A DNA stretch of 64,000 nucleotides from Vicinamibacterales bacterium (GCA_035293405.1 DATDOE010000040.1:95672-159671), one strand, 5' to 3'. Counted from the stretch's first letter, positions 826 to 58,641 are shown. Numbers and translations are program-made. Notes: a model not told the origin generated them from the sequence alone.

Positions 826-3072
826 ATGATTTCGCTGGATCTGTCAACACCCTGGCCGCGGTTTGGCGACCGCCGCGGCCGACGCCTATACTCCCACTCG
901 TTGAGTCCTCCCTTCCTCTCGGTGGTCGTCCCGGCGTTCAATGAGGAAGGCCGCATCGCATCGTTTATTGAGCGAATGCGCCAGGAACTGGCCACCCTGG
1001 TTCCCTCCTGGGAGATCCTCGTCGCCGACGACGGCAGCCGCGACCGGACCCGCGAGGTCGTCGAGACGCTCGCCGCCTCGGACCCCAACATTCGCCTCCT
1101 CGCCCTGCCTCATCGGGGCAAAGGCGAAGCCGTGCGCCGCGGGCTGCTCGAGGCCCGGGGCACCTGGCGCTTCATGGCCGACGCCGACCTGGCCATGCCC
1201 CCCGACAACCTGCCGCGATTCCTCGAACATACAAAGGACGGCAGCCACACCGCGCTGGTGATTGGCTCGCGCGAGGCCCCTGGCGCCAGGCGGGTCGACG
1301 AGCCCTGGATTCGCCATGTCATCGGCCGCGCCTTCAACTGGGTCGTCAGGCTGCTGTTCGTGGTCCGCGGGATTTCGGATACGCAGTGCGGCTTCAAGCT
1401 GCTCAGCGCCGAGGCCGTCGCGGCGATCTGCCCGCGTCTGACGATCGACGGCTTCGCCTTCGACGTGGAGATGCTGGCGCTCGCGCGTCGCGCGCGCCTG
1501 CCGATACGCGAGATCGGCATCACCTGGCACGGCGATCAGGAGAGCCGCGTGGCCATCGGGCGCGGCGCGGCCGCCTTCGTCGACCTCCTCCGCATCCGGT
1601 GGCGGCTATGGCAAGGCGCCTACGCGGCTCAGGACCAACCGGCCGAACAGGCGATCGAACGGCTGGGCCGCTTCAGCGTCCGCACGTGGGCGTACATCCT
1701 CGCGCTCATCTTCGCGGCCGCCCTGGCCTACGACCTTCTCCGCATGCCCGTGCAGGTGTTCGACGCGCTCGAAGAGATGCTCGCCGCCCAACGAACACCG
1801 TCCGTCGTGGACACGTTCTGGTCGGCGGCCTACAACGCCGCCTACCTCCGTCCCCTCCGCCTCGTCCAGATCAAGCTGATCTTCGACGGGGCACAGGGCC
1901 ACTACTGGCTCGCGTTTCGGGGGTTCCACGCGCTGTTGATGGTGTGCTGCCTGGTCCTGTTCACGCGCGCACTTCGCGTTCGCACGATCGCCGATCTCTG
2001 CGCGGCCGCATTCGCCCTGACGGTCGTCACCGGGCTCCATACGTTCCGCAGCACCGTGCAGGAAGCGTTTCCCATCAATCACTTTCTCGAAATCGCCGTT
2101 CTGGCCCTGGTGATGCTCAACCTCTCGCAGGCACGCCCACGGCTCATCGTCGATCTCGCCAGCCTGGTCATGTTCGTCGTCGCGGCCTTGACGCTGGAGT
2201 CCGGGCTGCTGGTGTGGATCGTGGCCGTCACGGCGTGGCTCGTCGGCATGCGCGGAGTGTCCGCCCGCGGCATTGCCGCGATGACGCTTCTGCTGGCCGT
2301 CTACTTCTATCTGCGGTTCTTCACGCTGTCGGTGGGCGTCCCGGGCCTCGTCGAGCGCAGCTCGGGATTCGTCTTCCAGGTGCTCGAGCCGGCGGAGCTG
2401 AAGCAGCGGTTTGGCGACAGGCTCGCGGTGTTCTACGCCTACAACGTGGTCTCGTCCGCGCTGTCAGTTCTCGCGTCGGAGCCACAGAGCGGGCTCTTCG
2501 TCACCGTGCGGTCATGGCTGGACGGCCACGTTCCTCCGCGCCTGGTGCTGACGTTCGTCAGCTCGCTGATCACGACCGCTCTGATGGTCGTGGCGGGTAT
2601 CCGGTTGATCCGCGGCTATCGATCGTCGGACGCGAGCGACCGACTGCTGCTCGTGTTTGCCGCCGTCCTTGCGGCGAACGCCACGATGTCGTTCGCGTAC
2701 ACCAAGGACGACATCGTGAGCGTCGCGGGCGTCTTCTATGGGTTGGCCGCGTACGCCGCCGTCCGGCTCCTCATCACCGGTGTCTCACCGGCGAACCGGA
2801 TCATGGCCGCTGTCCTGACGACCGTGATCGTCGTGACAGGAAGCGCATGGGCCGTGCGCAGCCTCGGGATTCATCATGTGGCGCGCACGTCCGCGTTCAA
2901 GACGCGCAACGACTGGGCGAGCCAGCCCGGTCTCTGGAAGCGCGCCGGACGATGGCCGTCCGAGCCGGAGAGCCAGCAGCTGATCATCCACCTTCGAAAC
3001 GACGCGCTCTCGCTGCGCGTGCCGAATCCTCGGTTCGAGCCGCCGTGGATCGAACGGCTCTGGGGAGATTGA
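826..3072 (+). CDS. fusion of a GT2 polyprenyl-phosphate hexosyltransferase-like domain (DPG-synthase/ALG5-like) with a C-terminal polytopic membrane domain
   Basis: 748-aa ORF. N-terminus LSVVVPAFNEEGRI...ILVADDGSRDRT...FMADADL is typical GT2. The C-terminal ~480 aa are multi-TM and clearly paralogous to the 52416-53825 product (HYWLAFRGFHAL/RYHFVFRGYHAL; EAFPINHFL/EAFPVNHFL; both end in WGD/WWGED). Start could also be TTG 901. Confidence 0.8.
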   Translation: MISLDLSTPWPRFGDRRGRRLYSHSLSPPFLSVVVPAFNEEGRIASFIERMRQELATLVPSWEILVADDGSRDRTREVVETLAASDPNIRLLALPHRGKGEAVRRGLLEARGTWRFMADADLAMPPDNLPRFLEHTKDGSHTALVIGSREAPGARRVDEPWIRHVIGRAFNWVVRLLFVVRGISDTQCGFKLLSAEAVAAICPRLTIDGFAFDVEMLALARRARLPIREIGITWHGDQESRVAIGRGAAAFVDLLRIRWRLWQGAYAAQDQPAEQAIERLGRFSVRTWAYILALIFAAALAYDLLRMPVQVFDALEEMLAAQRTPSVVDTFWSAAYNAAYLRPLRLVQIKLIFDGAQGHYWLAFRGFHALLMVCCLVLFTRALRVRTIADLCAAAFALTVVTGLHTFRSTVQEAFPINHFLEIAVLALVMLNLSQARPRLIVDLASLVMFVVAALTLESGLLVWIVAVTAWLVGMRGVSARGIAAMTLLLAVYFYLRFFTLSVGVPGLVERSSGFVFQVLEPAELKQRFGDRLAVFYAYNVVSSALSVLASEPQSGLFVTVRSWLDGHVPPRLVLTFVSSLITTALMVVAGIRLIRGYRSSDASDRLLLVFAAVLAANATMSFAYTKDDIVSVAGVFYGLAAYAAVRLLITGVSPANRIMAAVLTTVIVVTGSAWAVRSLGIHHVARTSAFKTRNDWASQPGLWKRAGRWPSEPESQQLIIHLRNDALSLRVPNPRFEPPWIERLWGD

Positions 3073-3073
3073 G

Positions 3074-3403
3074 GTGAGCCGACGGATGCTTCTCGTCGCC
3101 ACCGTGCCGGTCGCGGTGCTGGCCGCGGCTCGCGTGGTGTTTCTGATCCTGGCGATCTGGGACCTCCATCCCTTCTGGATGTGGGAGCCGCTGAACCTGT
3201 CGGAAGCGGCCGCACTCCGCGATCGCGGCGAGGTCGCGCGTCTGCTCGCCGAAGGACAGGATCCGAACGCGAAGTACCGGGTCCGCCGCGGCTTCGTCCG
3301 CGACTACGCGATGCAGTTGACGCCGACCGAAGCCGCGCGTGCCACCCGGCGGGATGAGATCGTCGAGATTCTCGTCGACGCGGGTGCCCGGCCGGACCCG
3401 TAG
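3074..3403 (+). CDS. small N-terminally membrane-anchored ankyrin-repeat-like protein
   Basis: 109 aa with GTG start 1 nt after the upstream TGA. N-terminal TM LLVATVPVAVLAAARVVFLILAIW. ANK-like LTPTEAARATRRDEIVEILVDAGARPD. Paralog of the 53827-54288 product. Confidence 0.6.
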   Translation: MSRRMLLVATVPVAVLAAARVVFLILAIWDLHPFWMWEPLNLSEAAALRDRGEVARLLAEGQDPNAKYRVRRGFVRDYAMQLTPTEAARATRRDEIVEILVDAGARPDP

Positions 3404-3420
3404 TGCGTCAGGCGCTCTCA

Positions 3421-3529
3421 CAACTCCCAACTCCCAATCCGATTCCCGAACCAACTCCCAAGCTGGAAGATGGGGGGGAGCGTTTGGGTGTTGGCTCGGA
3501 GATCGGGTTGGGAGTTAGGAGTTGGGAGG
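3421..3529. repeat. heptamer-based palindromic element (CTCCCAA units forward, TTGGGAG units reverse)
   Basis: Read directly: caactcccaactcccaatccgattcccgaaccaactcccaa ... ttgggtgttggctcggagatcgggttgggagttaggagttgggagg. The arms are imperfect reverse complements. A second copy lies at 55179-55302. Confidence 0.75.
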
Positions 3530-3583
3530 TCTGTGGTTAGCGGGTACTCTGCGCGGCGCAGTCGCTCGAGCCGTCTCGACACC

Positions 3584-3788
3584 CGACACACGGGCCGTGG
3601 GAAACGGGCTGCTCTGCGAACCGCTCGACGGCGCGGGAAAACAGTTCTCCGGGATGCGGGGATGCGACCCGGCCAGGTCCGTGACCTGGCCGGCCGGCTC
3701 CCCTTCGAAATGTTTTCCCATCTGGCGCGTGCGACGCGCCGCTCGCATGGTTCGCTGCCGCAGCCCATTTCCCGCGGCCCGTGTGTCG
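3584..3788. repeat. long inverted-repeat element (MITE-like or structured RNA), 29-bp termini matching 27/29
   Basis: Left arm cgacacacgggccgtgggaaacgggctgc (3584-3612). Reverse complement of 3760-3788 is cgacacacgggccgcgggaaatgggctgc. There is a central perfect palindrome ccggccaggtc-cgt-gacctggccgg near 3669-3693. Confidence 0.65.
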
Positions 3789-3814
3789 ATGGCGCAACCG
3801 GCCGGCGACCTGGT

Positions 3815-4080
3815 GCGGCGCCGCAGGGGGCGTACCGGGCCGGGACCTGCGTGCGCAAGGCCGACGCGGGGATCCTGGAAATCGTTCGCCGCGATTCATC
3901 CCTCGACTTCCGTCCATGCGTTCGAGTTGTGCGAGACCGCTCGGACAATTCGAGCCGGAGGCACATGTCGCGTCGAGGCCGCTCGTAGTCGAGGGGGGGA
4001 TCGGCAGGTCACGAGCAAGGACGATTTCCCGGCCGCGGCGCCCGCAGGTCCGGGCCCGGTACGCCCCCTGCGGCGCTGCC
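3815..4080. repeat. second long inverted-repeat element (MITE-like or structured RNA), 31-bp termini matching 30/31
   Basis: Left arm ccgcagggggcgtaccgggccgggacctgcg (3821-3851). Reverse complement of 4043-4073 is ccgcagggggcgtaccgggcccggacctgcg. Interior is partly self-complementary (ggaaatcgttc / ggacgatttcc). Confidence 0.65.
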
Positions 4081-4192
4081 CCCTCATCGCCAGTCAACGC
4101 GATGGCGTCTGCTCGCCAGAGTGACGCACTTCCAACGACGGGCCACCGTCAGCAGACCCGTTAACCTGATACGTTGGGAGTTGATCGCGCGT

Positions 4193-5026
4193 CTAGCGTC
4201 GGCGTGCGAGCCGGCGCTCACGCCACGCGGCGACGGAAGGTGCCGGCGCCACGTCATAGCCCAACAGCCGGGCCAGTGCGGGATCCCCCGCGTGCTTCCC
4301 CTGCAGCGCATCCGGCAGCGAGATCTGCTGCGCGATGATCGGCACCGAGAACACATGATTGACGGCGCGCCGCGGACGATCCGAGCGATTCTCGCCGGCC
4401 CGATGAAAGATCATCGAATCGAACACGATGAACGACCCGGGCTCGGCGGTCACGACGGTGTCCAGATCGGCCGCCACCGCGGCGCTCGGGAATGCTTCCA
4501 TGCGATGTGACGCGGGAATCAGCGTGGTGGCGCCGGTCTCGGCCCGGAACGGATCGATGCAGAACAACGCGCTGATCGCCAGCGGCCGGCTCGACACGAA
4601 GTGCTGATACGGAAGATCGCGGTGATAGGCCAGCTGCGTATGCCGCTGACCGGCGGGATTGATCACGCCGTTCTGCTGCATCAGGATGATGTAGTCCCCG
4701 AGCAGCTCGCGGCACAGGGCGAGTACCGCCGCATGCGCCGCCAGCGTCACGAACGCATCGTCATAGAGAAGCGGGCACCGGGCCGTCAGCGTGTCGCCGA
4801 TCGCGGCCAGGCGATCGGCGCCGCCAAACTCCTCGACCTGGCGTTCCATCACGCGGTCGAGGCGCGCTCCCAGGTCGGCGATCTCGGCGGTCGAGAATCC
4901 ACCGTGCACGACGGCGTAGCCGGAAAGGCGGATGCGCTCGGCGGCCAGCGCGATGGCGTTATCCGCGCCCCCGCGCTCGACGATCCCGTATCCCGGTGCG
5001 GTGCCGCCCTCAGACGCGCTCGTCAT
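4193..5026 (-). CDS. phytanoyl-CoA dioxygenase (PhyH) family Fe(II)/2-oxoglutarate oxygenase
   Basis: Motifs AYHRDLPYQHF...ATTLIPASHR...FHRAGENRSDRPRRAVNHVFS. Start chosen at ATG 5026 (MTSASEGG), overlapping the upstream stop by 17 nt. The track ORF extends to 5194. Confidence 0.8.
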   Translation of the reverse strand: MTSASEGGTAPGYGIVERGGADNAIALAAERIRLSGYAVVHGGFSTAEIADLGARLDRVMERQVEEFGGADRLAAIGDTLTARCPLLYDDAFVTLAAHAAVLALCRELLGDYIILMQQNGVINPAGQRHTQLAYHRDLPYQHFVSSRPLAISALFCIDPFRAETGATTLIPASHRMEAFPSAAVAADLDTVVTAEPGSFIVFDSMIFHRAGENRSDRPRRAVNHVFSVPIIAQQISLPDALQGKHAGDPALARLLGYDVAPAPSVAAWRERRLARRR

Positions 5027-6185
5027 CGACGAAATCGTACCATGTAACCACGTGCCGGAACCGCGCGCCGAGCCGCTCCGCCACGCGCGGCTGATCGCTC
5101 GGACGCAGGCCGAGCAGGATCGTTTCGTCGGCGCGGACAGAGTCGAGCGGGATGATCGGCAGATCTCCGAACACGCCCATGGCCTCGCCATCAACGGTGC
5201 AGGCTCTCACTGTGCTCCACGCACGCGGCGCGTACGCCCGCAGAAGACCGGCGGCTTCGCCGGCGCCGAAACACACGGTCGTCGTACCCAGACGGGACTG
5301 CAGATGCGCATCGAGCCGCCGCCAGCGATCGAGGTACGCGCGACGGCCGTCGGGCAGCACGCTGGTAAATGGGGCCGATCCGCCGGGAAGGTTGGCACCA
5401 ACGGGGGCACCGGCTTCTGGTCGTGCCTCGCGATCGGCGACGACCATCTGAAACGCACCCAGTGCCGGCGGCGCGATCGCCGTGGACACGACCGGCATAC
5501 CTGCACGCGCGAGCAGCGCTTCCAGATGCGGGCGCGCGAACGAGAACAGATGATCCGCGAACAGCAGCTCGACGCCAGGCCGCCCACCATCCGGGCACAC
5601 CAGGACCAGGCGACCGCCCGGCGACAGCGCGTGCCGCAGCGCGAGCACGAAGGCCAACGGATCCGCAGTGTGCTCGATCACGTTGACCGACATGACGAGG
5701 TCCGCGGCATCGTGAGGCAGGTCGTCCGCGGTCCCGCACCAGAGCTGCAGTCCGTCGCCGGCACCATGGGTGATGCTCTCCGCTGATGGATCGCACCCGA
5801 GCAGCGCCGTGCGCGGCCAATGCGGGCGCAGCGCGCGCAGCAACGATCCGTTGCCGCAGCCGACGTCGAGCGCCCGTGCTGGAACCTGCGGCACGACATC
5901 GGCAATCCAGCGCGCGTACTCCTCTTGTCGCGCGCCCTCTCGAGCCTCACCGGGCGCGTGCGCGTAGAGACCGTAGCCGGATGCGTACAGCGACTCGCCA
6001 GTTACCGATGACGGATGACGCCGCGCGAGGCCGCACTCGTCGCACGCCCACCGCGAGAGCGGCTCGGGAACGACCCGCCAGTCGCTGGCCATCGACTGCG
6101 GGCCGGGGTCCGGCAGCTTCGTCCAGCGCGTTCCTTCGCACACGATGCACGGCGGCACAATCGGCGGCGCGATCGTTGGCGTCAC
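5010..6185 (-). CDS. class I SAM-dependent methyltransferase with N-terminal Cys4 zinc-ribbon
   Basis: 391 aa. CIVCEG...CDECG zinc ribbon. SAM motif ALDVGCGNGSLL and post-I/II motifs (VMSVNVIEHTADP...LSPGGRLVL). Confidence 0.75.
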   Translation of the reverse strand: MTPTIAPPIVPPCIVCEGTRWTKLPDPGPQSMASDWRVVPEPLSRWACDECGLARRHPSSVTGESLYASGYGLYAHAPGEAREGARQEEYARWIADVVPQVPARALDVGCGNGSLLRALRPHWPRTALLGCDPSAESITHGAGDGLQLWCGTADDLPHDAADLVMSVNVIEHTADPLAFVLALRHALSPGGRLVLVCPDGGRPGVELLFADHLFSFARPHLEALLARAGMPVVSTAIAPPALGAFQMVVADREARPEAGAPVGANLPGGSAPFTSVLPDGRRAYLDRWRRLDAHLQSRLGTTTVCFGAGEAAGLLRAYAPRAWSTVRACTVDGEAMGVFGDLPIIPLDSVRADETILLGLRPSDQPRVAERLGARFRHVVTWYDFVDDERV

Positions 6186-6238
6186 GCCGCGACCCGTCGT
6201 CGAGAAACTGCGTGATAAACTCGCCCGCTGGCGGTGGA

Positions 6239-6955
6239 ATGTCCCACAAGCGCGTCGCGATCGTGCAATCGAGCTACATCCCCTGGAAGGGCTATTTCGA
6301 TCTGATCAGGGCCGCCGACGAGTTCATCCTGCTCGACGACGTACAGTTCACCAAGCGAGACTGGCGCAGCCGCAACCGTATCAAGACGAAGGACGGGCTG
6401 CACTGGCTGACGATCCCGGTCCACACCAAGGGGCGATACGAGCAGCGGATCATGGACACCACGATCTCCGAGTCGTCCTGGGGCGAGCGTCACTGGCAGA
6501 CGATCCAGAGCGCCTATGCCCGTACGGCCTTCTTCGACGCGTACGCGCCATCGGTGCGTGCGTTATACGAGAAGCCGGTGTCGGAGAAGTTGAGCGAGGT
6601 CAATCGCTCCTTGATTGACGTCATCTGTCGCGCGCTCGGAATCGCCACACCCATCAGATGGTCGTCAGAATATCATCCGTCCGAGGGACGGAACGAGCGC
6701 CTGATCGACCTGTGCCTGAAAGCCGGCGCGACCGACTACCTGTCGGGACCGAGCGCGCGCGGGTACATGGACGAAGCGGCGTTCGCCCGCGCGGGTGTCA
6801 CGGTGCAGTTCGTCGACTACTCCGGCTACTCCGAATATCCGCAGCCCTACCCGCCGTTCGAGCACGCGGTGTCGGCGCTGGACCTGCTGTTCTGCACGGG
6901 CCCGCGCGCGATCGACTATCTGAAAGACCTGTGCCCGGCACGCGTCGCGTCATGA
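6239..6955 (+). CDS. WbqC-like family protein
   Basis: MSHKRVAIVQSSYIPWKGYFDLIRAADEFILLDDVQFTKRDWRSRNRIKT is the characteristic WbqC N-terminus. Start ATG 6239 lies within the longer track ORF 5786-6955. Confidence 0.8.
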   Translation: MSHKRVAIVQSSYIPWKGYFDLIRAADEFILLDDVQFTKRDWRSRNRIKTKDGLHWLTIPVHTKGRYEQRIMDTTISESSWGERHWQTIQSAYARTAFFDAYAPSVRALYEKPVSEKLSEVNRSLIDVICRALGIATPIRWSSEYHPSEGRNERLIDLCLKAGATDYLSGPSARGYMDEAAFARAGVTVQFVDYSGYSEYPQPYPPFEHAVSALDLLFCTGPRAIDYLKDLCPARVAS

Positions 6956-7908
6956 GCAGCGAGGCGCCGGTGGCGCTGTCGATCGTCTCGTCCATGTATC
7001 GGTCGGCCGCGTTCTTGAACGAGTTCCATGCCCGGTGCACGGCCGCCGCCACGCGTCTGGCGGCGTCATCGTACGAGATCATCCTCGTGAACGACGGCTC
7101 GCCAGACGACTCGCTGACGGTGGCCATCGCCCTGCACGCGCGCGACCCACACGTGCGGGTCATCGATCTGTCACGGAACTTCGGGCACCACAAGGCGCTG
7201 ATGACGGGGCTCGCGCATGCGCGGGGCGACCTGGTGTTTCTGATCGATTGCGACCTCGAGGAGGATCCGGGCTGGCTGTCGTCGTTCCACGAGACGCTCA
7301 CCGGGAACGCCGTTGATGTGGTGTACGGCGTCCAGGGCGAACGTAAGGGCCGGCGGGTCGAGCGGATCGCCGGCTGGATCTTCTTCAGCCTCTTCAATCG
7401 GATGCTGACCCACCCGATTCCGGTGAACGTCCTGACCGCCCGCGTGATGACGAGGCGCTATGTGAAGGCGCTGGTGAGTCACCAGGAACGCGAGCTGTGC
7501 CTGGCCGGCCTGTGGGCGATTACCGGGTTCGAGCAGCGGGCGATCCCGGTGAACAAGGGCAGCCGTCCGGATTCGTCCTACACCACCCGCAAGCGCCTGT
7601 CCGTCTTCGCCAACGCCATCACCTCGTTCAGCAACCGGCCGCTGATCTACATCTTCCAGATCGGCATGGCGGTGATGGCGCTGTCCGTGGTGGCGGCAGT
7701 GATTCTGCTCTACATGAGACTCAACGGCCAGATCGGTGTGCCGGGGTGGGCGTCGATCATGGTCTCGATCTGGTTTCTCGGCGGACTGATCATCTTCTGC
7801 CTCGGCGTGATCGGGATGTATCTGGCCAAGATCTTCACCGAGATCAAGCAGCGGCCGTACACGATTGTCCGCGCCGAGTACGGCCCGGATCGGGACCTGC
7901 CCCAGTGA
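6952..7908 (+). CDS. GT2 polyprenyl-phosphate glycosyltransferase (ArnC/GtrB-like) with two C-terminal TM helices
   Basis: LSIVSSMYRSAAFL...ILVNDGSPDDS...DCDLEEDP. C-terminal TMs PLIYIFQIGMAVMALSVVAAVILL and IMVSIWFLGGLIIFCLGVIGMYL. ATGA overlap with the upstream gene. Confidence 0.85.
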   Translation: MSSEAPVALSIVSSMYRSAAFLNEFHARCTAAATRLAASSYEIILVNDGSPDDSLTVAIALHARDPHVRVIDLSRNFGHHKALMTGLAHARGDLVFLIDCDLEEDPGWLSSFHETLTGNAVDVVYGVQGERKGRRVERIAGWIFFSLFNRMLTHPIPVNVLTARVMTRRYVKALVSHQERELCLAGLWAITGFEQRAIPVNKGSRPDSSYTTRKRLSVFANAITSFSNRPLIYIFQIGMAVMALSVVAAVILLYMRLNGQIGVPGWASIMVSIWFLGGLIIFCLGVIGMYLAKIFTEIKQRPYTIVRAEYGPDRDLPQ

Positions 7909-8528
7909 GCCACGACGTGCGTCGCGGCCAGGCCCGCGACTACTACGACGCCAAGCTCCGCGCACATGGCGCGACGCCGGCCGGCGCCGACTGGAATTCG
8001 GTCGAGTCGCAGGAGCTGCGCTTCGATCAGCTCGCGCACTTGTGGCGGGATGACGCCGACGCCAGCCTCATCGACTACGGCTGCGGATACGGCGCGCTGG
8101 CCGGCTACCTGCGAACGCGTGGGCACCGTGGGCCCTACCTCGGCTTCGACGTCAGCACCGCGATGGTGGACGCGGCGAGGGCACGCGTCGGGTCGCTCCC
8201 GGCCTGCCGCGTCACGACGCACCACGAGGAACTGGTCGCCGCCGACTACGCGGTGGCCAGCGGCGTGTTCAACGTGAAGCAGGAATCCACAGACGAGGAC
8301 TGGGACGCATACGTCTGGGAGACGGTGGGCGACCTTGCCGCGCTGGGCACCCGCGGGTTCGCGTTCAACGCCCTCACGTTGTACTCGGACCAGGACAAGC
8401 GGCGAGCCGACCTGTTCTACGCCGACCCGCTCCAGCTGTTCGACCGCTGCAAGCGCACCCATTCCAGGTTCGTCACGCTGCTGCACGACTACCCGCTCTA
8501 CGAGTTCACGATCATCGTGCGACGCTAA
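7905..8528 (+). CDS. class I SAM-dependent methyltransferase
   Basis: GTG start in a GTGA overlap with the upstream stop. SAM motif LIDYGCGYGALAGYL. Confidence 0.7.
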   Translation: MSHDVRRGQARDYYDAKLRAHGATPAGADWNSVESQELRFDQLAHLWRDDADASLIDYGCGYGALAGYLRTRGHRGPYLGFDVSTAMVDAARARVGSLPACRVTTHHEELVAADYAVASGVFNVKQESTDEDWDAYVWETVGDLAALGTRGFAFNALTLYSDQDKRRADLFYADPLQLFDRCKRTHSRFVTLLHDYPLYEFTIIVRR

Positions 8529-8532
8529 TCTC

Positions 8533-9192
8533 ATGGCCAGACTCGTCATCTTCGGCGCCAGCGACATCGCGCGTCTTGCGCATCACTACTTCACGCACGA
8601 CAGTCCTCACGAGGTCGCCGCGTTCGTGGTCGACCGCGCCTTCCGGCAGGGCGACGAGTTCCTCGGCCTGCCGCTGGCCGACGCCGAGGACGCCCTCACC
8701 CGATTTCCGCCGAGCCAGTACGACATGTTCGTGGCACTCAGCTACGCCAAGATGAACGGACTCCGCGCGGAGAAGTACTCGGCGATGAAGGCGGCCGGCT
8801 ATCGGCTGGTCAGCTACGTCAGCTCGCGCTGCAGCTACCTGTCGCAGCACGCCCCTGGCGACAACTGCCTGATCCTCGAGGACAACACGATCCAGCCGTT
8901 CGTCACCATCGGCAACAACGTGACGCTGTGGAGTGGCAATCACATCGGCCACGATGTGACGATCGAGGACCACTGCTTCATCTCGTCGCACGTCGTGGTG
9001 TCCGGCCACGTGCGTGTCGGGACTCGCTCCTTCATCGGCGTCAACGCGACGCTGCGAAACTCGATCACGATCGCCCCGCAAACGCTCATCGGCGCGGGAG
9101 CGGTGATCATGAAGGACACCAGGCCCAAGGGCGTGTACCTGCCAGAGCGGGCGACCCTGTTCGACAAATCAAGCGACGAGATCGACCTGTGA
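8533..9192 (+). CDS. NeuD/PglD-like sugar N-/O-acyltransferase (N-terminal Rossmann-like domain plus left-handed beta-helix)
   Basis: MARLVIFGASDIARLAHHYF, then hexapeptide repeats IGNNVTLWSGNHIGHDVTIEDHCFISSHVVVSGHVRVGTRSFIGVNATL. Confidence 0.8.
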   Translation: MARLVIFGASDIARLAHHYFTHDSPHEVAAFVVDRAFRQGDEFLGLPLADAEDALTRFPPSQYDMFVALSYAKMNGLRAEKYSAMKAAGYRLVSYVSSRCSYLSQHAPGDNCLILEDNTIQPFVTIGNNVTLWSGNHIGHDVTIEDHCFISSHVVVSGHVRVGTRSFIGVNATLRNSITIAPQTLIGAGAVIMKDTRPKGVYLPERATLFDKSSDEIDL

Positions 9193-9216
9193 GCACCGCC
9201 TTATGAACACTGCCTT

Positions 9217-10128
9217 ATGAACACTGCCTGGCGGCGGCTCGGCCGTCTTCCGCTCGAGACCATTGACGCACCCTGGGCCGCCACTCACGCCGCACTGCCG
9301 ATCGTGGAGCCGCTCGGCGACGCGCGGTTCGGGGTCTACCTCAGCCTGCGGGACGTCGAAGGGCGCGCGCGCATCGGGCGGACCACGCTGACGATGTCCA
9401 GCACACCGGCATTCGACCCGCTCGATCCCGATCCGGTACTCGATCTCGGTGCGCTCGGAGCCTTTGACGACAGCGGCGTCACCTCGTCATGCCTGGTCAT
9501 CTCCGGGAGCACGCGATTCCTCTACTACACGGGATGGGCCAGAGGTGTGACCGTCCCCTTCTACCTGGCGGCGGGACTCGCGATCAGTCGCAGCGGCCGT
9601 CCGTTCGAGCGGCTCTCGCCGGCGCCGCTGCTCGACAGGACCGCCGTCGATCCGTTTCTCACCGCCTCGCCGTTCGTCATGGTGGACGAGGGACGATGGC
9701 GGATGTGGTACGTGTCGGCGACGGAGTGGCGGCCGGGCGAGGCGGCGGCGCGGCACTACTACAACATTCGATACGCCGAGTCAGGCGACGGCATCAGCTG
9801 GCAGCGCGATGGCATCGTCTGCCTCGATTACCAGGCGCCGTCCGAGCACGCGTTCGCCCGTCCGTGGGTCATCCGAGACAGGGACGGCTACCGGATGTGG
9901 TTCGCCGCCCGCGGCGATCGCTATCGGATCGAGTTCGCCGAGTCGCAGGACGGGACCAGCTGGACCCGGCGCAGCGAGTATGGGCTGTCTCAAGGCACGG
10001 AGGAGTGGGAGTCGATCATGGTCGAATACCCGTGCGTGTTCGACTGGAACGGCCGGCGGTACATGCTCTACAACGGCAACGACTACGGACGAACCGGTGT
10101 CGGACTCGCCGTCCTCGAGCAGGCGTGA
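9217..10128 (+). CDS. conserved hypothetical, possibly a GH43/DUF377-like beta-propeller
   Basis: 303-aa ORF with good coding look. Repeated W-rich blade-like segments (RWRMWYVSA, GYRMWFAARG, RRYMLYNGND). Functional call is from memory of similar genes in O-antigen loci. Confidence 0.5.
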   Translation: MNTAWRRLGRLPLETIDAPWAATHAALPIVEPLGDARFGVYLSLRDVEGRARIGRTTLTMSSTPAFDPLDPDPVLDLGALGAFDDSGVTSSCLVISGSTRFLYYTGWARGVTVPFYLAAGLAISRSGRPFERLSPAPLLDRTAVDPFLTASPFVMVDEGRWRMWYVSATEWRPGEAAARHYYNIRYAESGDGISWQRDGIVCLDYQAPSEHAFARPWVIRDRDGYRMWFAARGDRYRIEFAESQDGTSWTRRSEYGLSQGTEEWESIMVEYPCVFDWNGRRYMLYNGNDYGRTGVGLAVLEQA

Positions 10129-10145
10129 AGAGTAAGATTCCACGG

Positions 10146-11279
10146 ATGATCCCGTTCAACCGACCCCACCTGACCGGACGCGAATTCGGCTACGTGCAGG
10201 AGGCGGTCAACGCCGGTCAGCTCGCCGGGAACGGTCAATTCACCCGGCGCTGTCAGCAGTGGCTGCAGCAGCACCTCGGCTCACCTCGCGCGCTGCTCAC
10301 ACACTCGTGCACGGCGGCGCTGGAGATGGCCGCGCTCCTGCTGAATCTCGAGCCCGGCGACGAGGTGATCATGCCCTCGTTCACGTTCGTCTCGACGGCG
10401 AACGCCTTCGTGCTGCGCGGCGCGACGCCGGTCTTCGTCGACATCAGAGCTGACACGTTGAACATCGACGAGCGTCTCGTGGAAGCGGCGATCACTCCGC
10501 GGACGAAGGCCGTCGTGGCGGTGCACTATGCCGGCGTCGCGTGCCGGATGGACGACCTCGTGGCCATCGCGCGGCGCCATGGCCTGGTCGTGATCGAGGA
10601 CGCGGCGCAGGGGCTGATCGCGTCGTACCACGGGCGTCCGCTGGGCTCGATCGGTGATCTCGCGGCCTTCAGCTTCCACGAGACCAAGAACGTCATGTGC
10701 GGCGAGGGCGGCGCGCTCGTGATCAACAACCCGAGTTACGCCGAGCGCGCGGAGATCCTCTGGGAGAAAGGCACTGACCGCTCCAAATTCTCCCGAGGCG
10801 AGGTGGACAAGTACACCTGGGTCGACCTGGGCTCGTCATTCCTGCCTGGCGAGCTGACGGCGGCGTTTCTCTGGGCACAGCTCGAGGGCGTGGACGCGAT
10901 CACCGCTCAACGCCTGTCGCTGTGGCACAGCTATGACGCGGCATCAAAGGGCCTCGCCGACCACGGGGTCGAGGGTCCGACGGTTCCAGACGACTGCGAG
11001 CACAACGGTCATCTGTTCCGGCTGCTGCTGCCTCGTCACGTCGATCGGCGTGAGCTGCTGGCGGAGCTGAATCGTCGCGGCATCAACGCGGTGTTTCACT
11101 ACGTGCCGCTGCATTCCGCGCCGGCCGGGCGACGCTTCGGACGGGTCGCGGGGTCGATGGCGGTGACCGACGACTGCAGCGCGCGCCTGGTGCGGCTGCC
11201 GCTGTGGATCGGGATGGGTGCCGACACTCCGGGTCGCGTCCTGACCGAGGTCTCGGCCGCGATCTCGGCGCGCGTGTGA
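10146..11279 (+). CDS. DegT/DnrJ/EryC1/StrS-family aminotransferase, WecE-like (NDP-4-keto-6-deoxyhexose 4-aminotransferase)
   Basis: MIPFNRPHLTGREFGYVQEAVNAGQLAGNGQFTRRCQQWL...HSCTAALEMAALLL...FSFHETKNVMCGEGGAL (PLP-lysine context). Confidence 0.9.
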   Translation: MIPFNRPHLTGREFGYVQEAVNAGQLAGNGQFTRRCQQWLQQHLGSPRALLTHSCTAALEMAALLLNLEPGDEVIMPSFTFVSTANAFVLRGATPVFVDIRADTLNIDERLVEAAITPRTKAVVAVHYAGVACRMDDLVAIARRHGLVVIEDAAQGLIASYHGRPLGSIGDLAAFSFHETKNVMCGEGGALVINNPSYAERAEILWEKGTDRSKFSRGEVDKYTWVDLGSSFLPGELTAAFLWAQLEGVDAITAQRLSLWHSYDAASKGLADHGVEGPTVPDDCEHNGHLFRLLLPRHVDRRELLAELNRRGINAVFHYVPLHSAPAGRRFGRVAGSMAVTDDCSARLVRLPLWIGMGADTPGRVLTEVSAAISARV

Positions 11280-11383
11280 GCCGGCACTGCAACATCGTCA
11301 ACTCGACCCGTGACAACGTCCGCCTTTCTTGGCCCGCCGAAGCCGCGTAGCGGCGAAGGCGGCAGCCGGACCGTGTCCCGATC

Positions 11384-11646
11384 GCCGCGGGAGACGCATA
11401 CCGACCCGCGGTCGCGGGCGCTGCGGCCGGGAAAGCGACCTCCGTCTCGTTCTCTATCGCTCCCTGCGCGTCTACTAGCTCTTTCGTGACGACATCTGTT
11501 ACGCGGCTCGAAACGTCGGCGGTATCTCGTGGCAACGAGAACGCGATGGCGGGAGACGCGCAGAGGAATCGCTCCGGCCGCTTTCCGGCTACGCCCCGAG
11601 CTCGGCCTTGCGCACGCGACCGCCGCTCGGCATGCGTCCCCGCGGC
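11384..11646. repeat. third long imperfect inverted repeat in a convergent intergenic region
   Basis: gccgcgggagacgcataccg (11384-11403) versus the reverse complement of 11628-11646, gccgcggggacgcatgccg. Inner matches include ccctgcgcgtct / agacgcgcagag. Confidence 0.45.
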
Positions 11647-11671
11647 GATGAGCACAACTTCACGAAACCGC

Positions 11672-12151
11672 CTAACGGCCGCGGTCCTTCACCGCCGCAC
11701 GCGTTTCGCGATCGACCTCGCGCTTGCGGATCGTCTCGCGCTTGTCGTGCGCCTGCTTGCCCTTGACGAGCGCGAGCGCGATCTTCACGCGTCCCTTCTT
11801 GAAATACATGCGCAGCGGGACGAGGGTGAGCCCCTTCTCGTTGATACGCCCGCTCAGCTTCAGGATCTCGTGCCGGTGCAGCAGCAGCTTCCGCTGGCGC
11901 CGCTCCGAGTGGTCAGCAGAGCCCCGGTGACTATAGGGGCTGATGTGGACGTTGTTCAACCAGACCTCGCCCTTGTCCACGCGCGCGAAGCTGTCCCGGA
12001 GATTGACCCGGCCCTCGCGAATGGCTTTGACCTCGGTGCCGAGGAGCGCGACCCCGGCCTCCCACTCGTCGAGGACGTGATAGTCGAACAGCGCCTTGCG
12101 GTTGTCCGCAATCAGCTTCTGCGCCTTCTCGCGTTCGGTCTTGGCGGTCAT
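11672..12151 (-). CDS. smpB: SsrA-binding protein SmpB
   Basis: 159 aa. IADNRKALFDYHVLDEWEAGVALLGTEVKAIREGRVNLRDSFARV...LLLHRHEI is canonical SmpB. Confidence 0.95.
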   Translation of the reverse strand: MTAKTEREKAQKLIADNRKALFDYHVLDEWEAGVALLGTEVKAIREGRVNLRDSFARVDKGEVWLNNVHISPYSHRGSADHSERRQRKLLLHRHEILKLSGRINEKGLTLVPLRMYFKKGRVKIALALVKGKQAHDKRETIRKREVDRETRAAVKDRGR

Positions 12152-12157
12152 GGCGTG

Positions 12158-13603
12158 CTACCGCGCCACCAGGCGCAGCCGGCCCCGGTCATCGTACTCG
12201 GCCACGCCTGCCGCGACCGCGCGCTCGACGGCCGCGGGCCATTCGGCCGCCACGCGCGGCCGCAGATGCTCGTCAACGCCGAGCACGGCGCGATCGAAGG
12301 CCTGCCAGTAGGCATCGACGCGCGCGTCTTTCTGCCGTGAAGTCATCGTGACGAGGGGGGGTGGAGAGGACGCCAGTCGCGCGAGGACGAGATGGTGCAG
12401 ATTGCGCCCCTTGATGAACACCGTCTCGAAGCCATTGGCCGCCAGCCCGCGTACGAGCGAGGCCTGGTCGAAGGCCTGCATGTGCAGCGGGTTCAGCGTG
12501 GCAAACATCGACTGGTTCCCGGCCAGGAACTCCGCGTCATCGGGCTCGGCGTAGAGGTAGATGTGGCCGCCCGGGTTCAGCTTGCGCCGCAGCTCGGCGA
12601 AGAAATCGCGCGGGCGGAGCGCGTGCGTGAACATGTGGTTGCAGACGATCAGATCGAAGGTGCCGTCAAAGGGAATCTGGAACTGCTCGAAGTCGATCAG
12701 CGGCGAGGTGGTGATGCCGAACAACTCGCGCAGTAGAAACTGCTGGCTTTCCCAGATCGGCATCGCGAAGACGCTGGCCCCCCAGGCCCGCCGCAGTCCA
12801 TCGAGAATCGTGCCTGCCCGCGACCGCACTTCGAGCACACGCGCGCCCCGCGGCTCGAGCAGCGAACCCAGGATGTCGGTGTGGATGCTGTTCTCGAGCC
12901 GATCGCGCAAGAGTGGCGCGAGGTACTGCTTGCCGGTCAGTCCGAGATGATCGGAGACGAACACTCCGTGCGCGGCGAGTCGCCTGAGCTCCTCTCGATC
13001 GGCGTCGGTCAGCGGATACGGATTGAGCAGCCGGTTGGTAATCACCCCGGTCCCGGCAGCGCCCCGTTTGGCCACGACCTCACCGAAGTGGGCCAGCAGA
13101 TAGTGATAGCGGCTGCCCAGCGGGCGACGGGCCGCGAACAGGACGCCACAGGAGTGACACATCGAATAGTCATAGCGAGCCGATGTCTGATCGGGAGCCG
13201 TGGCAATCAGAATCAGCTTGTTCCAGGGATTGACGAGCGTCCGCTCCTGGCCGCCGCACACGGAACAGGCGTCCAGATCCCACCATTCGCGCCCATCGGG
13301 ATCAGGGAATGGATCGCCGTCGGCGATCGCCTCCCAGGTCGCCGGCTCGAGCTCGCCTGCGTCAGTGGGAATCGCCCGCCCCGACAGCCGGCGGGCCTGC
13401 GCCTCCTCGGCGTTTGACACCCGAGCGAGGCGTCCGAGCTGATGGTTGTACTGGAGCAGACGCGCGTGCATCTCGCGACGGAGCTCGCGGACCTCTTCCT
13501 GGACGACGCGCAGCTCGCTATCGAGCGGACGCCGCCAGGCGCGGACCGCGGCCCGGACCCGTCCGAACATTCCGTTGTTTGGGGAAGCGTCGCCAGCCAT
13601 CAA
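12158..13603 (-). CDS. SAM-dependent methyltransferase with N-terminal coiled-coil and Cys4 zinc-ribbon
   Basis: 481 aa. CSVCGG...CHSCG. RVLEVRSRAGTILDGL and FDLIVCNHMFTHALRPRDFFAELRRKLNPGGHIYL. Confidence 0.7.
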   Translation of the reverse strand: MMAGDASPNNGMFGRVRAAVRAWRRPLDSELRVVQEEVRELRREMHARLLQYNHQLGRLARVSNAEEAQARRLSGRAIPTDAGELEPATWEAIADGDPFPDPDGREWWDLDACSVCGGQERTLVNPWNKLILIATAPDQTSARYDYSMCHSCGVLFAARRPLGSRYHYLLAHFGEVVAKRGAAGTGVITNRLLNPYPLTDADREELRRLAAHGVFVSDHLGLTGKQYLAPLLRDRLENSIHTDILGSLLEPRGARVLEVRSRAGTILDGLRRAWGASVFAMPIWESQQFLLRELFGITTSPLIDFEQFQIPFDGTFDLIVCNHMFTHALRPRDFFAELRRKLNPGGHIYLYAEPDDAEFLAGNQSMFATLNPLHMQAFDQASLVRGLAANGFETVFIKGRNLHHLVLARLASSPPPLVTMTSRQKDARVDAYWQAFDRAVLGVDEHLRPRVAAEWPAAVERAVAAGVAEYDDRGRLRLVAR

Positions 13604-13606
13604 TAA

Positions 13607-13686
13607 GCCACGGAGGTCACGGAGATCACGGAGCCGACTGAGAGCCGTTCGACCGCGCGGCCAACATCTTCGTGGCCTCCGTGGCC
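13607..13686. repeat. CACGGAG-family heptamer repeat, compact forward+reverse (hairpin) copy
   Basis: gccacggaggtcacggagatcacggag ... cttcgtggcctccgtggc. Overlaps the last ~20 codons of the 13626-15458 ORF. Confidence 0.75.
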
Positions 13687-15458
13687 ACAGTCGGGGGGAT
13701 CATCACCCCCGAGTGTGCCACGTCGCTGCCCGTACCGTAACAGGGCCAGCCGAGCGGCTGCCACACACGGGTCGGCGAGCGGTCGCGGCGGACGTACAGG
13801 CTGACGCCGAATCGCCCGTCGAAGAGGTGCGTGGCCGCCAGCTCATAGCGCTCGTCGATGTAGGCGGTCACGATCGGAAACGACTTGTAGAAGTTCCGGA
13901 GCGACTCGTCGGTCTCGAGGAGAATCACCGGAACCGACTGCCGCTGCAGGCGAGCCAGCGTCAGGCGTTGCGCGTCCTCGGTCTCGAAGAAGCCGGGCCG
14001 CAGATCGGCGTGACCGCCGGCAAAGGCGCGGCGCGCCAGCGCCAGCACCTGCGGCATGTATGGCTGCACCAGGATGCGATCGGTCGGCACCGTGCACGCG
14101 TTGACGTACATCGCCAGCGTGATCAGATCCGGCCGGTCCTTGCGAGACGCCCAGGACTGCAAATCCCAATCGAGCCGCAGCTGTTCCGACACGCTGCCCA
14201 CGCGCTCGAAGGCTTGACCGAACCGCTCGGTCATCGCCGCCTTCTCGAGCCGGCTGTAGAAATCGCCACTCACGACCAGCATCAACAGCAGCGCGATCGC
14301 CGCTCCCACGGCCGCGGCCACGCCGCGTACTGCCCATCGACCCGGACGCAGCACCGGCTGCAGCGACGCGTCGCCTCTCCACATCCGCGGCAGCGCCACG
14401 GCCAGCCACGCGACGAGAATCACCAACGGCACCGACGGATCGGCGAGACGCGCCTCGAGCGGGCTGCGCAGAAACCCCACATCGAGCGCAGCGGTGAGCA
14501 CCGCAACCATCGCGAGCTTGGCCCGGGCATGCGGCCACTCTGGTCGGAACCCGTCACGCGAGACCGCCAGCACGAACAGGGCGAAGAACGGGAGCAGGAT
14601 CTCGAGGTAGTACATCCATGCCGTGGTGTTGTCGCGCAGCACGCCGACGAGCGATCCCGCCTTCGCGGCATCGGATACGCCATCGGGGTTCTCGAAGAGG
14701 CCTGGCCACACCACCGGCGCGCGGTCGCGATCGCGCTCCGCCCACGCCGACGCCTGGCGGAAGTAGGACACCAGACCGCCGTTGTACTCGATGAACGCGA
14801 GGTAGGGCGCCACCAGCAGCGCGACGAGCAGACCGTAGATCAGCACATGCCGAAGCCGCTCCCTCCAACGAAGCCTCGTCTGCGACAGCATCAGTACGGT
14901 CGTCGCGAGGCCGATGAACGCCCCGTGGTCGTGACGGAACAGGAAGCCGATGACGGTCACCACCGCAATCCAGGCACGGAGCCTGGCGCTCGGGCGATCG
15001 GCGAACCACCAGAGCAACGGGATTGCGGCGGCGTACACCAGGATCTTCGGATAGTTGTAGAAGCGTGGTCCCAGCCAGATGTGGAGGAAACATCCGGCGA
15101 GGCCGGCCCAGATCGATCCCGACGCCTTGGTAGCGAGCCAGAACGTCATCGCCGCGCCAATCGACAGGACCGTCGTACAGAAGACCAGCTCGGACACCGT
15201 GCCTCGTCCGAGCACCGCCTGCACCGCCGCGCCGACGTAGTAGAAGAGCGGCGCGCCGTGATCCACGAAGTCCTTGACCGGCAGATCGCCGAACAGAATC
15301 TGCCAGCCGCGGACGAGATAGAAGAAGTGATCGTCGGTCAGGCCCGCAAACGATCCACCAGGGTCGTTGAAGCGGAACAGCCAGGAGAAGACGACGATGC
15401 CCACCGCGAGGATCCACATTAGCGCGGTGCGCGCTCGCGGGGACATCCGGCCGCTCAC
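13626..15458 (-). CDS. large polytopic membrane protein, GT-C-like (ArnT/PMT-like) glycosyltransferase candidate
   Basis: 610 aa with more than 10 predicted TM helices, then a soluble C-terminal ~200 aa. Acidic DDH motif in the first loop (GLTDDHFFYLVRGW). ATGA overlap with the upstream gene. Fold assignment is inference. Confidence 0.65.
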   Translation of the reverse strand: MSGRMSPRARTALMWILAVGIVVFSWLFRFNDPGGSFAGLTDDHFFYLVRGWQILFGDLPVKDFVDHGAPLFYYVGAAVQAVLGRGTVSELVFCTTVLSIGAAMTFWLATKASGSIWAGLAGCFLHIWLGPRFYNYPKILVYAAAIPLLWWFADRPSARLRAWIAVVTVIGFLFRHDHGAFIGLATTVLMLSQTRLRWRERLRHVLIYGLLVALLVAPYLAFIEYNGGLVSYFRQASAWAERDRDRAPVVWPGLFENPDGVSDAAKAGSLVGVLRDNTTAWMYYLEILLPFFALFVLAVSRDGFRPEWPHARAKLAMVAVLTAALDVGFLRSPLEARLADPSVPLVILVAWLAVALPRMWRGDASLQPVLRPGRWAVRGVAAAVGAAIALLLMLVVSGDFYSRLEKAAMTERFGQAFERVGSVSEQLRLDWDLQSWASRKDRPDLITLAMYVNACTVPTDRILVQPYMPQVLALARRAFAGGHADLRPGFFETEDAQRLTLARLQRQSVPVILLETDESLRNFYKSFPIVTAYIDERYELAATHLFDGRFGVSLYVRRDRSPTRVWQPLGWPCYGTGSDVAHSGVMIPPTVATEATKMLAARSNGSQSAP

Positions 15459-33920: not shown

Positions 33921-34451
33921 CTAAGAACCTTTGTTCGCCGGCCAGCGAACGGCGAGTGCGGCGATGCGCTTCACGCGCTCCTGGGCACGGCTGGCCAGGT
34001 GCTCTTCGAGGGCCGTGCCGGCGGGAATTCTTCCGGGCACAGTGCTCATGACCATGCCGGTGGCGGACAGAGTGGGAAGCGTGGCGTCGGGCATCGGGTG
34101 CGCCGACGCAGCAGCAACCCGGCGGCGCACGAACGGCCGGACGAGCGCCACTCCGATCGACGAGATCAGCGGCCGGGAGACTCCGATGCCCGCCATCTTC
34201 GTGAGCGTGGACCGCATCGCGTCCGATCCGTCCGCCGTGTCGTCATCGGCGGCCAACGCCGGCATCTCCACGACGCGGAACGGCGCGACACCGTGGGTCA
34301 CGATCGCGGCCGCACGCTGATCGCCGGTCGCGACGAGGATCCAGTCAGGGGTTGACGAGCGGGCCTCGTCCACCACGCGCACACCTGCAGGGGCAAGCGC
34401 TTTGACGCGCTGCAGCGCCGACGCGGTCGCGCCGATCACGAGCAGCATCAT
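33921..34451 (-). CDS. hypothetical protein (176 aa)
   Basis: In-operon ORF with an ATGA overlap to the upstream gene (MMLLVIGATASALQ...). No recognisable domain. The track ORF extends to 34634. Confidence 0.4.
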   Translation of the reverse strand: MMLLVIGATASALQRVKALAPAGVRVVDEARSSTPDWILVATGDQRAAAIVTHGVAPFRVVEMPALAADDDTADGSDAMRSTLTKMAGIGVSRPLISSIGVALVRPFVRRRVAAASAHPMPDATLPTLSATGMVMSTVPGRIPAGTALEEHLASRAQERVKRIAALAVRWPANKGS

Positions 34452-52320: not shown

Positions 52321-52415
52321 GTCGATAGATTATGTGCGGGTTTCGTATGTGACAATGCCCTGCCCAAGTCCGGCTAAAGCCGGACACCACGAAGACCAGA
52401 CCGTACAACGCGCTC

Positions 52416-55206: not shown

Positions 55207-55302
55207 AGGAAACTCCCAATCCGAACCTGAATCCAACCCCCAACTTCCAACCCCTTCCCCCGATTCCCATTGGGAGTTGGCATCAGGTGCGGATTGGGAG
55301 TT
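55179..55302. repeat. heptamer-based palindromic element (CTCCCAA/CCCAACC units forward, TTGGGAG reverse), second copy
   Basis: caactcccaacgcccaacccgaacctgaaggaaactcccaatccgaacctgaatccaacccccaacttccaacc ... cattgggagttggcatcaggtgcggattgggagtt. Confidence 0.75.
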
Positions 55303-55397
55303 GCCCGCCGCCGCCTGACGAATGCCGTCACGAGCGTCAGGCTTTGGCGAGGCCACGCCGAAGCGCGCGTTGACTGAGGCGCGCGAAGGCGGGGGAG

Positions 55398-58544
<3,147 letters not shown>

Positions 58545-58568
58545 AGCTACCTCTAAAGGCCCAAGGCA

Positions 58569-58641
58569 CAATGCTCAATGCAGAATGCCCAAGCATTGAG
58601 CACTCGACTTTGGGCATTGAGCATTGGGCATTGAGCATTGA
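58569..58641. repeat. intercistronic palindromic repeat (GCATTGAGCA / TTGGGCA units) between adaptor and pump genes
   Basis: caatgctcaatgcagaatgcccaagcattgagcactcgactttgggcattgagcattgggcattgagcattg. Confidence 0.7.

Follow-up and report, generated by a model that had tools for sequence, protein, structure and literature searches.

A 64,000-nucleotide stretch of Vicinamibacterales (Acidobacteriota) DNA, hereafter the window, holds between positions 3404 and 4192 an intergenic interval with two adjacent palindromic elements, A (3584-3788) and B (3812-4082). A preliminary description of this DNA had read both as resembling miniature inverted-repeat transposable elements (MITEs) or as large structured RNAs, keeping a folded noncoding RNA and an array of bidirectional terminators as alternatives. 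Our comparative analysis leads to a different view: on balance, A and B appear to be members of lineage-specific, dispersed families of hairpins in Vicinamibacterales that pair over their whole length, and not transposons defined by terminal inverted repeats (TIRs). B belongs to what is apparently a previously uncatalogued family of ~255-base folded elements. We incline to regard this B family as strand-specific structured elements at gene 3' ends, most likely RNAs, and our best guess is that each represents a structured RNA module at the end of a gene.

Structure and membership of the B family

Folding revealed three long imperfect hairpins within the interval—H1 (3412-3532), A and B—and showed each to pair over its whole length, not merely at its termini. 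The interval reached a z-score of -15.3 against dinucleotide shuffles, none of which was as stable, and H1, A and B were each more stable than every dinucleotide shuffle. Element B, whose sense strand is the plus strand, has a minimum free energy (MFE) of -187 kcal/mol (z -9.4 against dinucleotide shuffles). Its inverted termini, put at some 30 bp in the preliminary description, are real but were understated in extent, the arms actually measuring 45 nt (3812-3856 and 4038-4082; 91%). The peptide ARYAPCGAAP, noticed earlier on both strands, is a direct consequence of these mirrored arms. We likewise agree that 3404-4192 holds no credible coding sequence: a Pfam search of four mirrored open reading frames (ORFs) inside it returned no match, and the B-family alignment described below contains many frame-breaking 1-nt indels. 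A coding role for the family was rejected on the same grounds.

A sensitive self-search of the window recovered a second copy, B2 (11383-11647, sense strand minus), which is 68.6% identical to B over 271 nt (E 8e-25) and folds with a z-score of -6.1. A search of the 64 kb with a covariance model (CM) detected no copy besides B and B2. To look beyond the window, the pattern GCGTGCGCAAGGCCG...CCGGCCGC was run over GTDB genomes; it proved too loose, matching more than 112 loci, and among the matches listed four were true relatives, all from Vicinamibacterales or Acidobacteriota metagenome-assembled genomes (MAGs). A tighter pattern applied to JGI metagenomes gave 21 loci, 17 of them with full copies. 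After duplicate removal, the alignment (A3) comprises 19 distinct full-length copies, B and B2 included, and the family has at least 17 relatives outside the window, in Vicinamibacterales MAGs and soil metagenomes. A search of viral contigs, plasmids and phages gave no match, and none of the literature searched describes the family. Rfam 15 returned nothing for the window at gathering score, only spurious eukaryotic miRNA hairpin matches (on H1 and A) at E up to 10, and nothing for six other B-family members; the unmatched families include 6S, Ms1, Y RNA, TwoAYGGAY, Acido-1, Acido-Lenti-1, tmRNA, RNase P and the signal recognition particle RNA. ARAGORN and Rfam together detected neither tRNA nor tmRNA, nor any further RNA gene of a known kind, over the whole 64 kb. 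The idea that B2 might be a tmRNA, considered because smpB adjoins it, was dropped, as ARAGORN found none in the window and B2 lacks tmRNA features.

In B, a conserved core (3849-4045, plus strand; nhmmer match, E 1e-43) is enclosed by a variable closing helix, P1, whose 5' strand (3812-3848, plus) was delimited by alignment and covariation and whose 3' strand (4046-4082, plus) by the inverted repeat and covariation. Throughout the family, the outer ~30 bp of this helix are free in sequence provided they pair: between paralogues the sequence is essentially unrelated, the pairing is always kept, and a small irregularity holds a conserved position. The inner closing helix, P1b, is invariant (GCG-U-GCGC-AA-GGCCG opposite CGGCC-GCN-GCGC-C-CGC) and brings the total to ~42 bp. 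Further inwards lie P2 (GGAAAGCGGCC with GGCCGCUUUCC; GGAAA.../...UUUCC), an asymmetric internal loop with GAGCGAUUC on its 5' and GGGAGCGGNAGGGUACGAGCGGAGG on its 3' side (GAGCGAUUC against GGGUACGAGCGGAGG in B itself), P3 (CGCGUCGAC with GUCGACGCG; CGUCGAC/GUCGACG) and an asymmetric apex of ~80 nt, which includes ACGGAUGUCG and the conserved stretches CGCGUUCUGGUUG, GCGUUUUGAGCCGCGUGACGGAUGUCGC and CGAGUCAGC. A candidate pairing of CGACUUCCGU with ACGGAUGUCG was rejected, the A-to-U change in B2 and in locus L067 co-varying instead with the P3 partner. The span between the outermost modelled pairs is uniform in all copies, at 253-261 nt.

The alignment supports this structure by covariation. 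Standard pairs fill 94.4% of the cells of the named helices, compared with 79.3% after shuffling of columns and 31-43% after partners were shifted by 1-3 columns. Both sides have changed in 40 of the 73 pairs, including 26 of the 33 in the variable closing helix. The covariation score of 0.421 exceeds the 0.135 of shuffles and the 0.045-0.074 of shifted partners, and on no covariation measure did any of 500 shuffles match the real alignment.

Three lines of evidence assign the sense strand, which is plus for B and minus for B2. G-U exceeds A-C in the modelled pairs (98 versus 14), also within the variable outer helix (27 versus 7), where either strand would be equally able to pair. In a comparison independent of the consensus structure, 18 of 19 copies reached a lower MFE on the sense strand, the gap averaging 9.9 kcal/mol (Wilcoxon p 1.5e-4). 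Covariance model R1 scored family members at 184-272 bits in sense and 18-39 bits in antisense orientation; B itself received 199.8 bits on the plus and 21.8 on the minus strand, and the CM scores for B2 were 246 bits on the minus and 18 on the plus strand. The G-U excess and the better sense folding together point to a folded nucleic acid that is specific to one strand, most likely an RNA. Of the possibilities considered in the preliminary description, the structured RNA finds support for B in the strong covariation and the asymmetry between strands, whereas for A, with its single homologue, the case is weak.

Conservation follows the same division into core and arms. Over all pairs of the 19 copies, the cores are a median 73% identical (range 58-89%) and the outer arms a median 45% (minimum 22%), with arms resembling each other only within orthologous or closest lineages. 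The termini are therefore not conserved among related copies, one of the findings on which the preliminary description had proposed to give up the MITE interpretation. Four copies (L071, L118, L119 and L134) are orthologous, sharing flanking genes for a DUF1330 protein and a 718-aa protein; at these loci the element is 81-91% identical, as against 74-83% for adjacent coding DNA (91% in the closest pair). Judged from these sequences, the orthologous copies are evidently under purifying selection, and the family as a whole, as read from its alignment, consists of old retained paralogues and not of a recent burst.

Genomic context and origin of the copies

The gene on the 3' side of a B-family copy is convergent at 11-12 of ~16 independent loci, mostly at a distance of 9-155 nt, while the orientation of the 5'-side gene is mixed; in about a quarter of copies the downstream gene is co-directional. 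Checks of a few flanking genes showed unrelated housekeeping genes, with no transposase, reverse transcriptase or nuclease among them. At three loci a distant relative, which we call C-type (CM 65-103 bits), stands head-to-head with a B copy (L009 1840-2125, minus; L124 4705-4990, plus; L067 5292-5477, minus), and in each such doublet both 3' ends point at a convergent gene. A partial copy at L132 (6972-7093, minus) comprises the apex only (model positions 86-215, 71 bits) and lies ~600 nt from a full copy of opposite orientation.

In the window, the interval with H1, A and B is bounded by two stop codons, that of a 105-aa ORF (3086-3403, plus; 109 aa from an upstream GTG), which matches no Pfam family, and that of a gene for a 277-aa PhyH-family dioxygenase (4193-5026, minus; Pfam 1.4e-23), which has orthologues elsewhere and is convergent with B. 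Upstream of the 105-aa ORF lies a gene for a 748-aa family 2 glycosyltransferase (GT2; 826-3072). An identical PhyH protein in NCBI is assigned to a Vicinamibacterales bacterium MAG. B2 starts 25 nt past the stop of the co-oriented smpB (11672-12151, minus; PF01668), and its 3' end is 104 nt from the stop of a convergent DegT/DnrJ/EryC1 aminotransferase gene (10146-11279, plus). The latter was taken from the gene table of L113 (European Nucleotide Archive ERZ27254861, k141_1222857), a contig identical to the window but of opposite orientation.

Comparison with six related genomes (PhyH identity 80-85%) suggests how B and B2 came to lie where they do. In the relatives, a 750-aa gene follows PhyH after 0-54 nt and smpB abuts its neighbour; these ancestral junctions are tight (0-54 nt) and element-free. 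In the window, the block 750aa-606aa-methyltransferase-smpB has been swapped with the block DegT...WbqC-methyltransferase-PhyH within a polysaccharide-type gene cluster (3074-12151), and the two new junctions are the exact sites of B2 and of B/A/H1. The 54 kb recovered from the relatives contain no copy of B or A. The closest relative of B, at L116, is 85% identical by blastn (83% in alignment A3) over the whole hairpin, and its flanks, which include a DinB-family gene, are non-homologous to those of B. Taken together, the likeness confined to the hairpin and the new junctions indicate that copies reach new sites, rarely, and that the unit that does so is the entire hairpin.

Two other histories were considered. 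As an origin of the local gene order, an inversion between B and B2 fails to give the arrangement of the relatives. As a source of the variable outer stems, insertion of a core into pre-existing palindromes is unlikely for B: in the close lineages compared (the orthologous group, B with L116, and L117), outer-stem sequence tracks the relatedness of the cores, and the uniform stem length of the family also counts against it.

How such an element might act can be sketched for the sense strand. A B element would be transcribed by read-through from a co-oriented upstream gene or from a promoter of its own; smpB could serve as the source for B2, and the operon of GT2 and the 105-aa ORF as that for B. 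The long perfect duplex may set or protect RNA ends; it would be a plausible substrate for RNase III and a barrier to 3' exonucleases. The conserved loops may serve as binding sites for a protein or a second nucleic acid. Copies would be gained only rarely; B and B2 lie at junctions absent from the related genomes.

Element A, H1 and neighbouring repeats

Element A (205 nt) has an MFE of -140 kcal/mol (z -11.3 against dinucleotide shuffles). Re-inspection reproduced the features first described for it, namely 29-nt arms at 3584-3612 and 3760-3788 that are complementary at 27 of 29 positions (93%) and a central palindrome, ccggccaggtc-cgt-gacctggccgg, at the apex (3670-3694). We found one homologue, at L135 860-1075 (E 2e-4), which also occurs in the near-identical contigs L129, L131 and L122. 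The two sequences, of 205 and 214 nt, share the blocks GACG.CGCGG.A.AAC, GCGACCCG and UCUG.CGCGUG; their apex stems differ in sequence in a compensated manner and keep the CGU loop, and their outer stems are unrelated. This comparison hints, weakly, that A is built on the design principle of B. A itself was rejected as a diverged B or C member, nhmmer giving nothing at E up to 10 and the B-family CM only generic-hairpin scores (21 bits on the minus and 8 bits on the plus strand). The outer arms of the L135 copy form an inverted pair of hairpins (GTGTCCGCCTTCAGGCGGACC and GGTCCGCTGAAGGCG) like those of repetitive extragenic palindromes (REPs), placing the A core inside a doublet like those termed REPINs (REP doublets forming hairpins). 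For this copy, a core may have been inserted into a pre-existing palindrome.

H1 (~120 nt; MFE -73 kcal/mol, z -7.4) starts 9 nt past the stop of the 105/109-aa ORF and consists of AACTCCC-type heptads on one side and their complements (TTGGGAG) on the other (arms 3417-3461 and 3484-3528). The window has a related copy at 55179-55305, in an intergenic region that a crude gene caller labelled convergent. The motif AACTCCCAA is enriched in the window (17 matches versus 5 expected), and heptads of this type stand directly past the stops of the 105-aa ORF, PhyH and the L116 DinB gene, on the coding strand in each case. At PhyH a single motif (4174-4182, minus) lies ~10 nt past the stop, and at L116 the heptads (790-835, minus) lie upstream of the B copy. 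At L056 the B copy is preceded by an array of four GGGATTC repeats (L056 3985-4015). The complement of the AACTCCCAA-type heptads contains a Shine-Dalgarno-like GGGAG.

A second class of repeat lies on the other side of the B copies. REPs of the GTAG-tagged class, which has been described together with REP-associated tyrosine transposases (RAYTs; PMC3733652), occur 10-35 nt downstream of 8 of the 19 copies in constant orientation, each a hairpin with ACTACGTACG after it on the sense strand. The family found here reads GTAG-TGTCCGGC-TTCA-GCCGGACC, or GGTCCGGCTGAAGCCGGACACTACGTACG on the other strand. Its members include two in the window (38183-38212, which reads GTAG-TGTCCGGC-TTCA-GCCGGAC, and 52367-52392), two at L135 (548-577 and 2393-2421) and those 3' of B at L117, L118, L128 and L129.

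The window holds further long hairpins. One at 58553-58640 is built of the short, AT-richer repeats CAATGCTCAATGC and GCATTGAGCATTGGGCATTGAGCATTG (GC 0.49, in a genome of 67% GC). Another, at 13595-13697, has arms within 13607-13685 that consist of GCCACGGAGGTCACGGAGAT and ATCTTCGTGGCCTCCGTGGC, and those at 51495-51590 and 34438-34536 gave generic CM matches only (12-15 bits).

Competing explanations and significance

Several observations weigh against reading the B family as structured RNAs at gene 3' ends. The strand signals fit RNA and single-stranded DNA alike, G-T wobbles also stabilising DNA hairpins. We found no conserved motif or promoter in the 5' flanks of the copies, and no sigma-70-like promoter or U-tract terminator on either strand around B and B2 (3300-4300 and 11200-11800); in the doublets with C-type elements, moreover, the 5' ends are only ~10 nt apart, too close for promoters to fit into the gap. 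With orthologues counted once, the preference for a convergent 3' neighbour (about 12 of 16 loci) is a modest tendency and not a rule, and no single fold of the ~80-nt apex could be settled. Because the core parts TGCGCAAGGCCG, GCGATTC, GCGTT and CCGGCCGC served as search pattern, their invariance is partly a matter of ascertainment; no search pattern included the covarying helices or the remaining conserved blocks. As for A, its family numbers two sequences only.

A serious rival, to our mind an unlikely one, holds that these are single-stranded DNA elements tied to REP/RAYT biology, comparable to REPs and bacterial interspersed mosaic elements (BIMEs), to integron attC sites or to IS200/IS605 ends. 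One strand of the DNA would fold while being replicated or transferred, and an HUH/tyrosine (RAYT-like) or other recombinase would recognise it and also spread the elements. Folded DNA would be expected to display the same strand asymmetry with G-T wobbles; the one-way GTAG REPs of RAYT type 3' of B copies, the inverted REP pair forming the A-like arms at L135, the head-to-head doublets, which recall BIME and REPIN arrangements, and the new copies at rearrangement junctions would all fit. GTAG REPs (PMC3733652) resemble A and B in being palindromic, intergenic and probably transcribed, with an enrichment between genes that converge or run in one direction. They measure 20-40 bp and end in GTAG, however, whereas A and B are 6-10 times REP length (205-271 nt), have ends of their own without a GTAG/CGTC tag and possess a conserved, complex interior; the genuine GTAG REPs are separate neighbours of B copies. 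The conserved part lies inside the element and not at the ends, where a nuclease would cut, and the retention of copies at orthologous loci, where they are more conserved than coding DNA, suggests a host function. Beside the copies we saw no RAYT or recombinase among the few genes checked, the window not being fully annotated and no RAYT-directed search having been made.

That the elements are generic bidirectional terminators or stabilisers of mRNA 3' ends, for which any long GC-rich hairpin would serve and whose conservation would merely reflect common descent, strikes us as improbable. Three hairpins do fill one convergent intergenic region, most B copies face the nearby 3' end of a convergent gene, and other convergent intergenic regions of the window also contain hairpins, such as that at 55179-55305. 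Against the terminator array of the preliminary description, neither strand has a U tract after the stems, and a simple terminator has no need of a 200-nt asymmetric core with invariant loops whose identity among ancient paralogues is 58-89%. Nor would it account for the copies whose downstream gene is co-directional, or for sense and antisense strands that are far from equivalent.

A special case of the RNA interpretation, in which the hairpin with its asymmetric bubble would imitate a nucleic-acid substrate and, acting in trans, titrate RNA polymerase or another protein in the manner of 6S/Ms1 or Y RNAs, is similarly hard to credit. 6S and Ms1 RNAs are long irregular hairpins of 180-300 nt with an asymmetric central loop and a conserved structure. 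The B family would seem to resemble them in these respects, with its long closing stem, large asymmetric loop between P2 and P3 and terminal domain; its strongly conserved loop nucleotides and independently retained paralogues also fit. By contrast, the Rfam models for 6S, Ms1 and Y RNA give nothing at E up to 10, the presence of at least two copies within 8 kb, in addition to doublets, exceeds the typical number, and a conserved promoter was not found.

The MITE interpretation, by which a transposase encoded elsewhere moves the elements via their TIRs and the hairpin is a by-product, is very unlikely: the 200-270 bp size, end inverted repeats, intergenic and non-coding nature, dispersal of multiple copies to unrelated contexts, 83-85% identity of B and its L116 relative over the hairpin with non-homologous flanks, and junctions of B and B2 that are absent from six related genomes all suit it, but the termini are the least conserved part, near-identical copies are lacking (the pair in the window is 62-69% identical, with no third copy in 64 kb), the copies are old and selected, with orthologues retained and more conserved than neighbouring genes, and pairing runs the whole length around conserved asymmetric loops with one strand favoured. 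Neither did a transposase turn up among the few neighbouring genes tested, the window being incompletely annotated. A target-site duplication, not seen in the preliminary description either, is not visible at A, B, B2 or 16 other copies, although the element ends are fuzzy and very short duplications are possible.

By behaviour, the nearest analogues of the B family would seem to be palindromes of the enterobacterial repetitive intergenic consensus (ERIC) type and the TwoAYGGAY elements. ERIC and Correia/NEMIS elements are imperfect palindromes over their whole length, ERIC measuring ~127 nt and being conserved throughout. Like the B family, ERIC is in its entirety an imperfect palindrome in intergenic, likely transcribed regions and is conserved across species, and orientation-dependent effects on mRNA are plausible for both. 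The B elements are longer (255 versus about 127 nt), their outer arms are not conserved in sequence, and the two share no homology. TwoAYGGAY (Rfam RF01731, Pseudomonadota) comes close in being multicopy, structured and intergenic with an elongated basal stem. In Pseudomonas it is multicopy and enriched in divergent doublets, with short repeat arrays before it and REP arrays after it (bioRxiv 10.64898/2026.09.22.753630). The B family parallels this with divergent doublets at three loci, arrays of 5-7-nt repeats upstream of three copies (H1, AACTCCCAA at L116 and GGGATTC at L056) and REPs on a fixed downstream side of eight. The two nevertheless differ in phylum, sequence and model, and RF01731 matches no B copy. 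TwoAYGGAY has two terminal-loop hexamers, whereas the B family has a single AYGGAY-like ACGGAU that is predicted to be paired, and B-family copy number looks lower (2 in the 64-kb window, 0 in 54 kb from relatives).

Returning to the B family as structured RNAs at gene 3' ends, we judge the feature to be real and non-random but of an ordinary kind, namely a structured intergenic element that is dispersed, or a candidate noncoding RNA, if one with unusually strong comparative support. A bolder view, which we consider quite unlikely, would see a new class of bacterial element, its conserved RNA core clamped by a measured ~42-bp duplex whose outer sequence is free, to which A and C types would belong by architecture. 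Its mechanism would be one of two. In the first, RNase III would free the RNA from a read-through transcript, and the RNA would act in trans, decoying a protein or polymerase or serving as a guide. In the second, the element would copy itself to new gene 3' ends in a hairpin-dependent manner tied to GTAG REPs and RAYTs, in which case it would be a selfish structured RNA or DNA element later retained by its hosts.

Vicinamibacterales are abundant soil Acidobacteria for which, to our knowledge, there is almost no experimental RNA biology. An alignment, a consensus structure and a covariance model are now on hand for an uncatalogued 255-nt element of this group. The case also cautions against an annotation that passes from long terminal inverted repeats directly to a MITE, the ends being here the least conserved part. 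Finally, the traits held in common with TwoAYGGAY suggest that REP-coupled, multicopy structured elements may recur in bacterial intergenic DNA.

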